A stretch of 29,604 nt of DNA from Opitutia bacterium (GTDB lineage Bacteria > Verrucomicrobiota > Verrucomicrobiia > Opitutales > T3Sed10-336), in assembly GCA_050506795.1 (NCBI GenBank), contig JBJHCF010000049.1, positions 1-29,604 of the forward strand, given 5' to 3'. Each line of letters begins with the position of its first letter. Position 1 is the stretch's first letter. Positions 1 to 145 of the stretch are shown here, piece after piece. Both the position numbers and the translations under genes were made by a program. A model generated the notes under the pieces. The model ran no database searches, had not been told where the DNA came from, and worked only from the letters and a program-made list of their open reading frames with translations.

Positions 1-92
1 CATACACGCAACACTCGGTAGTTGTTACTGGTTAGGTTTTACAACGTCCGGACTTTCACCGGACAAGAAGCGCCTTGCTTCGCTCGGCGCAC
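1..92 (-). mobile_element. 5' end (domain I start) of a group II intron, running off the left edge of the window
   Basis: The minus strand from 92 reads GTGCGCCGAGCGAAGCAAGGCGCTTCTTGTCCGGTGAAAGTCCGGACG. It has the GUGYG 5' consensus, a GCGCC/GGCGC hairpin, and the GGTGAAAGTCC motif inside a TCCGG/CCGGA stem typical of bacterial group II intron 5' ends. The RT ORF and domains V/VI would lie outside the window. Confidence 0.75.
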
Positions 93-145
93 GAACGTCT
101 CGGGTCAGGATGGGCTATCTCCCGTTGCGTGCATCCGGTTCGCTC
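93..145 (-). other. degenerate attC-like integron recombination site, interrupted at its R' box by the intron
   Basis: Minus strand GAGCGAAC-C-GGATGCA-CGCAAC-GGG-agatag-CCC-ATCC-TGACCCG-AGAC-GTTC|GTGCG. It shows an R''-like GAAC, an L''-like GGATGCA with an extra base versus the L'-like TGACCC, a central stem and R' GTT. The R''-L'' spacer is shortened, and the site overlaps the 3' end of the hydrolase gene. Confidence 0.5.

Follow-up and report, generated by a model that had tools for sequence, protein, structure and literature searches.

Is the DNA at the left edge of this locus the end of a mobile intron, and does that intron occupy an attachment site (attC) of an integron? The window analysed here, that is the whole stretch of 29,604 nucleotides (G000:C49:1-29604), starts at the first base of its contig, and the original prediction placed a group II intron exactly at the R' box of an attC-like site behind a hydrolase gene. 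Here, we report that positions 92 to 1 of the minus strand are the 5' end of a true group II intron. It is probably a recently mobile, endonuclease-less and class E-like element (IIB-type ribozyme, RF02005) of a lineage that homes to attC, whose site in the window is ectopic or decayed.

The hydrolase ORF occupies positions 1014 to 115 of the minus strand (299 aa, stop codon TAG at 117-115) and encodes an alpha/beta hydrolase of the esterase type, as judged from its Pfam matches (BD-FAE 7.6e-23, Abhydrolase_3 5.3e-21). A spacer of 22 nt (114-93), ending with ACGTTC at 98-93, separates it from the intron, which begins with GTGCG (92-88) and the start of domain I in the same sense as the gene. 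The intron stretch, 92..1 on the minus strand, includes GGTGAAAGTCC and runs off the contig at base 1. Both the predicted position of the junction, 22 nt past the hydrolase stop, and the sense orientation were confirmed, the former by the sequence itself, by RF02005, by a second copy on contig C72 and by relatives in other genomes. The covariance-model match proposed as a check was obtained in truncated form: in a permissive Rfam scan of positions 1-400, RF02005 (group-II-D1D4-6) matched 56..1 as a 3'-truncated hit of 23.3 bits (E 7.8e-5). This is under the gathering score of 49 because the intron is cut by the contig end, and no match was obtained when the whole window was scanned at the gathering threshold. 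The same 92 nt are present with 100% identity at C72:127..1 of the same genome behind an unrelated flank, and it is this identity up to GTGCG that sets the boundary of the element there. The blast match between the two contigs extends over 98 nt at 99%, the sole mismatch being the exon base at -1 (C in C49, T in C72). On C72 a pilN-like ORF runs antisense to the copy. The 5' end in the window is also 85-90% identical to the 5' ends of full-length introns in relatives.

Further copies in the genome were compared, as had been suggested. A degenerate remnant of about 270 nt without RT extends downward from C2:49672. It starts with TTGCG in place of GTGCG, as does an independent copy in a relative, L031 (G005:C250:25722), and UUGCG is also the 5' boundary given for the intron UHB.I2 in the excerpted text of PMC7923331. 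Contigs C7 and C79 share an identical start of 126 nt, made up of a 125-nt intron end and the exon base G, and then continue into unrelated flanks. Domain V was recognized at 51-125 of both (RF00029, 41.5 bits at a cut-off of 40), domain VI is present and the intron ends with AAT at base 125. These 3' ends and the 5' ends on C49 and C72 belong to one intron family, since the full-length intron G005:C90 carries both: its 5' end is 85% identical to the C72 copy over 128 nt, and its 3' 95 nt are 96% identical to the starts of C7 and C79. The anticipated domains V and VI are hence found, on C7 and C79, whereas the anticipated RT is missing from the G000 assembly and is present in the relatives. 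C7 and C79 are equally possible as the 3' exon, and the junction reads GTTC/GCA or GTTC/GGT. The 3' exon had been expected to complete an R' box; both candidates start with G and resemble the R' form found on contig C46 of this genome, not the textbook GTTRRRY.

The presence of at least two near-identical copies in the genome would explain why the assembly broke inside the intron. No contig overlapping the start of the window reaches past 35 further bases that are present on C72. Six-frame reading of the four possible joins between C49 and C7 or C79 gave no ORF continuity, GC content was indecisive as to the 3' partner of C49, synteny searches in five relatives gave nothing useful, and contigs from runs X1-X3 aligned to positions 1-900 showed no joint across the intron. 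When the G000 assembly was searched by tblastn for the interior and the RT, the best match, at 31%, was with a different intron that lies on C9. Other families account for this intron and those of C14 and C31, as well as for the 3' ends on C3 and C8, all of which were rejected. At least three further group II intron families are present in G000 (C9:55762-57000, C14:87842-88223, and C3:1-990 with C8:130500-130767), and the C3/C8 pair is likewise a repeat at which the assembly breaks.

Among 301 genomes of the order, 20 harbour homologous intron 5' ends, G000 included, and several of these lead full-length introns with RF02005 matches (70.4, 72.6 and 57.7 bits), RT ORFs and domain V. The intron of 70.4 bits, G005:C90, has an RT ORF and a domain V of 45.6 bits (RF00029). 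Derivatives of about 480-840 nt that keep both ends and have no ORF are L033 (G059:C47), L085 (G070:C5), L075 (G066:C3), L081 (G182:C23) and L057 (G126:C310), some of them at attC-like sites. Within one RF02005-type intron, L036 (G048:C1:795800-800000), an RF01999 match of 114.7 bits was found together with an RT frame of just 338 aa, and this may be a nested intron.

It is in these relatives that the association with integrons is documented. Three intron copies of genus g4 have as their 5' flank a conserved repeat, matched 27 times in G005 and 21 times in G008, which starts at TAA and ends with CTGACCTCGACGTT followed by C or G. These repeats are arrayed on one strand at distances of about 530-1600 nt, and ORFs of the same orientation lie between them, beginning 12-35 nt after several of the repeats. 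Integron integrase genes (intI) above the TIGR02249 cut-off, or fragments of such genes, are divergent from the repeats (G005:C65, G005:C250, G008:C44 and G008:C170). In G103 the distance between intron and intI is 1.9 kb for the copy at C18:92395 (intI at C18:89574-90518, 427.8 bits) and 2.3 kb for that at C23:55440 (intI at C23:52215-53147, 361 bits). The introns are opposite in strand to intI, which identifies the intron-sense strand as the cassette-sense strand. In these relatives the insertion follows GTT or GTTN of the R' box at the 3' end of attC, on the top strand, with the junction ACGTTN/G. At 6 of 12 3' junctions the intron is followed, after 8-15 nt, by an ORF of 79 to over 170 aa that starts with ATG.

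The genome under study itself contains two integron integrases above the TIGR02249 cut-off, on C46 (412.7 bits) and C50 (382 bits). To the right of the C46 intI and on the opposite strand are a small ORF and a pair of attC-like repeats, each about 100 nt long, that both end with ACGTTCG, exactly the intron's last six exon bases plus G, with the R' boxes GTTCGTG and GTTCGGG. The intI, the cassette ORF of 113 aa and the two repeats fit into C46:37144-39569, before the contig ends. The intI of C50 is found within C50:1-1626, and the first 45 nt of that contig overlap the start of C31, where a degenerate group II RT (GIIM 68.6 bits), with no domain V found, lies antisense to the expected cassette direction. 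A strict genome-wide attC scan of G000 produced 237 scattered matches and no cluster of three or more; it missed both C46 attCs, was uninformative for this reason and was discarded. In run X2 a loose end matches an attC flank of the G005 type.

About 28 junctions were gathered from the 20 intron-bearing genomes and assessed by a home-made, crude test of attC architecture (AAC...GTT enclosing one end-to-end hairpin) that has a background of 12%. It was passed by 10 of the 19 junctions ending in GTT, as compared to 182 of 1500 random ACGTT sites in G000; nine further junctions, from sub-families with another IBS1 and no GTT, were left out. Most of the sites that passed carry their bulged bases on the 5' arm. 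In DNA this rich in GC, counting ORF orientations over the 400 nt upstream gave no information. The relatives assembled in few contigs, G066, G124 and G166, carry the intron at a great distance from any intI or on different contigs, while the intI match of G048 is below the cut-off and G095 has none; the sites in these five genomes would be solitary or integrase-less attC sites. The prediction of a different attC-targeting mode is hence supported by the g4 arrays beside intI, by G103 and by the R' boxes of C46, and not by the window's own site.

How such sites may be recognized is suggested by the intron RNA. The consensus fold has a conserved terminal loop, nt 287-292 of the G005 copy L034, which is the predicted EBS1. 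This loop covaries with the last six exon bases in the pairs GAACGT/ACGTTC, TAACGT/ACGTTA and AAGAGT/ACTCTT. Nine rows of the alignment, representing three EBS1 sequences, pair at 6/6 positions, three at 5/6 and three at 4/6; misalignment at the EBS1 columns makes seven rows, which stem from deleted or fragmentary copies, uninformative. The copy in the window would, judging from its relatives, carry GAACGU as its EBS1, and ACGTTC at 98-93 (minus strand) is the predicted partner. The difference at -1 between C49 and C72 is compatible with this, as a G in EBS1 would tolerate both C and T. The first base of the 3' exon is G in 9 of 12 junctions.

A second, IBS2-like contact made by a loop of domain I is a possibility. 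A 14-nt single-stranded loop of domain I in the G005 intron holds AGGUCA, which is complementary to TGACCT at -14 to -9 of its attC target, and the window has TGACC at 107-103 (minus strand), a weak candidate for such an element that lies one base further upstream than in G005. TGACC is not present at the C72 and C2 copies. The IBS2-EBS2 pairing was seen for G005 and for some sites with CTTG and not for L074, L075, L067, L077, L082 or L057, and the consensus fold contains no EBS2 hairpin.

We propose that the DNA target is found by RNA-DNA pairing between the six-nucleotide EBS1 loop (GAACGU type) and ACGUUY at -6 to -1, with a +1 exon base that is usually G and a possible IBS2-like contact by the single-stranded loop of domain I. 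In this bacterial order the sequence ACGTTN/G would correspond to the spacer and the R' core at the 3' end of attC on the cassette-sense strand. From this it would follow that the intron homes into cassette arrays co-oriented with their genes and could be spliced from their transcripts.

At the site in the window, ACGTTC and TGACC are both present, and either candidate 3' exon would supply a G at +1. Its identity as an attC-like site, as originally claimed, was nevertheless not sustained, and the label is weak. All three G000 copies, on C49, C72 and C2, fail the crude attC test. An nhmmer profile built from 18 g4 repeats did not detect the site at E values up to 100 and has no member in G000. 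The inner 59 nt fold at -6.8 kcal/mol as compared to -7.6 +/- 2.0 for shuffled sequences (z +0.39), and an end-to-end hairpin is absent from the minimum-energy and near-optimal folds. The argument that an extra base in the GGATGCA box defines the top strand is not sustained either, as it depends on a stem of 5 bp that is absent from the minimum-energy fold. No neighbouring attC or cluster of candidate sites was found by the site, and no intI is present on C49, C7, C79 or C72. The insertion is most likely an ectopic one at an attC look-alike or one into a solitary attC that has decayed, the look-alike being the more probable of the two.

That the site is instead a genuine, perhaps solitary or decaying attC, and that hydrolase, intron and two small ORFs on C7 make up a CALIN-like cluster without integrase, we consider rather unlikely, although several observations speak for it; on that view the original prediction would be wholly correct. 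R''-like heptamers are present at 162-156 (GGTGAAC, followed by CGACA and CTGCGG) and at 144-138 (AGCGAAC, the complement of GTTCGC should C7 provide the 3' exon), and the 3' end, GAC GTTC/G, is shaped like the local R' boxes, with C at position 4 as in the C46 attCs and in departure from the textbook motif. The arrangement GGTGAAC-5 nt-CTGCGG-AGCGAACC mirrors the CTTCAAC-5 nt-TCGTGTC-AGCGAACC of the g4 repeats in spacing. Such short motifs, however, often arise by chance. The inner of the two heptamers is a weak one, of a kind that about 8% of comparable windows should contain at random, and a pairing of CTGCGG with CCGAG (103-99), with one bulged G, is speculative and does not appear in the minimum-energy or near-optimal folds. 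The weak fold does not in itself speak against an attC, since bona fide repeats of the g4 arrays fold weakly too (-6.8 to -9.5 kcal/mol), and the G005 repeat likewise fails the crude test, its inner part being shorter than the limit of that test.

The surroundings are similarly divided. Searches with DNA of the hydrolase gene region in G001, G002, G004, G005 and G008 returned a single 50-nt match, and C7:126-1230 is likewise without counterpart in five relatives, while C7 has one from about position 1232. At the start of C7 are two ORFs (122 and 172 aa), of which the first begins 15 nt past the junction, with a bulged hairpin between them; this hairpin, however, ends with GTC and not GTT, and C79 is as possible as C7 for the 3' exon. 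On the other side, the 52-nt gap between the hydrolase gene and the upstream 426-aa gene holds neither a hairpin nor an attC, and the genes neighbouring the hydrolase gene are large (426 and 1421 aa). Together with the failure of the site in the attC test, the profile search and the comparison with shuffled sequences, this speaks against a genuine attC.

The class of the intron bears on whether a familiar attC-targeting intron is seen here in an unusual orientation. The RT of the G005 relative (P0001) matches RVT_1 with 112 bits and, weakly, GIIM with 19.5 bits (cut-off 23), and Pfam found no endonuclease or HNH domain in it. Its similarity to proteins in the PDB (phmmer) is ambiguous as to class, with 145 bits for LtrA, which we take to be class ML, 125-133 bits for the IIC RTs 6ar1, 7uim and 5hhj, and 122 bits for 6me0, a 562-aa maturase-RT chain that we presume to be class CL. 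Assignment from these scores was abandoned in favour of class D and class E anchors from S. meliloti. P0001 is 41% identical (318 bits) to the S.me.I4-type RT, the class E anchor, and colinear with it to the C-terminus; it is 33% identical (190 bits) to the 419-aa RmInt1-type RT (class D) of the same plasmid, pRmeGR4b. The best plasmid relatives of P0001, at about 40% identity, are from rhizobia, Burkholderia, Pseudomonas and Bacillaceae, and the one from S. meliloti is the element with a disrupted copy on pRmeGR4b of strain GR4. A scan of four of the five 50-kb stretches of this plasmid and of 63.8-67.7 kb revealed a disrupted RT and one intact ltrA of 419 aa, presumably the length of the RmInt1 protein, which was taken as RmInt1. 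According to the excerpted text of PMC5894124, pRmeGR4b carries a disrupted class E intron, S.me.I4, and one RmInt1 (class D). RF02005 matches an intron on a plasmid of B. cenocepacia with 189 bits, one on a Peribacillus plasmid with 149, the S.me.I4-type intron with 140 and the G005 intron L034 with 70 bits, while the RmInt1-type intron matches RF01999 instead. In the literature searched for a class of RF02005 the Rfam 15 paper alone was found, and it names none. The lineage thus appears class E-like and not IIC, class E being the nearest in pairwise comparison with one anchor each for classes D and E and with the RTs of the PDB. Beside these comparisons, the RF02005-type intron of B. cenocepacia J2315 (L095, NC_011003.1:9550-9590) begins right after a CTGT-N8-ACAG palindrome that resembles an SOS box, beside imuA.

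A strand-switched variant of the class C introns known as IIC-attC is, in the light of these scores, very improbable. Such a variant would account for the small ribozyme, with ORF-less relatives of 477-556 nt, for the absence of an endonuclease domain and for the consensus fold without an EBS2 hairpin. The RT, with 318 bits to the class E anchor as against 125-133 bits to solved IIC RTs, sets the lineage apart from IIC-attC. Its EBS1-IBS1 pairing of 6 bp contrasts with the 3-4 bp given for IIC in the excerpts of PMC7923331, and its target is neither TTGT/T nor on the bottom strand nor antisense. The original view that this is not a classical IIC-attC intron holds on the RT anchors, the 6-bp IBS1 and the R' junction.

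In the textbook picture, as far as we are aware, class C introns alone target attC, and do so on the bottom strand and antisense to the cassette gene. The excerpts of the published accounts describe IIC-attC introns accordingly, as class C elements that cut at TTGT/T of the bottom strand and lie antisense (PMC3001079, PMC4424553, PMC7923331). The lineage reported here shares with them, specifically the S.ma.I2 type, the lack of an endonuclease domain, attC as the landing pad, a core containing GTT and the 3' side of a folded hairpin. It is class E-like, inserts at R' of the top strand in the sense of the cassettes and has an IBS1 of 6 bp, whereas IIC-attC introns, as described in those excerpts, insert at R'' of the bottom strand, recognize a stem-loop, have an IBS1 of 3-4 bp and have no IBS2.

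A full-text literature search for sense-strand introns of other classes at attC found PMC7923331 as the sole report, as far as the accessible text of the retrieved papers goes, and the corresponding portions of the review PMC4424553, which matches the search terms, contain no report of class E introns at attC. The accessible portions of the former describe a CL1/IIB1 intron, UHB.I2, that lies sense and just downstream of attC (Sonbol and Siam 2021, Mob DNA 12:8, PMC7923331), and two class E fragments, H.ha.F1 and H.ha.F2, in the cassette direction of a CALIN of Halorhodospira halochloris (PMC7923331). Like these three, the present introns are non-IIC, endonuclease-less and oriented in the cassette direction beside attC or attC-like hairpins. 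Unlike H.ha.F1 and H.ha.F2, which in the portions consulted are 5'-truncated with their insertion point and EBS-IBS pairing undefined, they include full-length relatives that define both. They also differ from the Halorhodospira introns in host order, and the window copy is not in a demonstrable attC.

Outside integrons, the closest resemblance is to the S.me.I4-type elements (L096, L097), which share RF02005, the lack of an endonuclease domain and an RT colinear over 418 aa. The identity is only 41%, and the rhizobial copy has an IS256-family transposase gene as its neighbour and shows no sign of targeting attC. RmInt1 (class D) is similar in being endonuclease-less and in retrohoming by EBS-IBS pairing into a repeated target on mobile DNA; it differs in its RT (33%, 190 bits) and in a ribozyme that matches RF01999, not RF02005.

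What the relatives add to the published record is a defined point of insertion (top strand, behind GTT or GTTN of R'), a covarying guide pairing of 6 bp and two further genera with a clear integron context. These additions support the idea that the use of attC sites was acquired independently by several intron classes. The feature is an added member of a sparsely published kind, and the window alone is of modest value, being a partial copy at a doubtful site. Introns on the sense strand would leave cassette expression free of polar effects, yet would interrupt the recombination core, which bears on the stabilising or reshuffling of cassette arrays.

We lean towards a more specific reading of the lineage, namely that it is class E-like, widespread across the order and specialised on integrons, as a mirror image of IIC-attC, that its EBS1 (and in g4 the second loop) co-evolved with L'-R' of the host attC, and that the window copy is a spill-over onto a chromosomal look-alike. 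If so, homing would take place on the cassette-sense strand, a few bases from the crossover point of IntI, and would split R', with the intron still able to be spliced from the cassette transcripts. An occupied attC would then be frozen against recombination by IntI while its cassettes were still expressed.

It is hardly credible that the similarity to an intron end is due to chance or to an assembly artefact at the contig edge, for although it covers 92 nt only and its Rfam score is under the gathering threshold, C72 has an identical copy behind another flank, 20 of 301 genomes contain homologous 5' ends and contigs from an independent assembly of run X1 carry the intron 5' end too. Other repeats break the assembly of G000 as well: a family of repeats about 100 nt long, both interspersed and tandem, with two short hairpins each and not attC-like, is present on dozens of its contigs and at many contig ends (for example C1:1-300, C27:940-1340, C72:13240-13460 and C6:1-200). 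In run X1 the summed contig depth was 940-1420 over the intron (window 1-90) as compared to 14.7 over the hydrolase gene (121-900), a contrast indicating that the intron family is far commoner in that sample than the unique DNA of the genome, owing to many copies or to other hosts.
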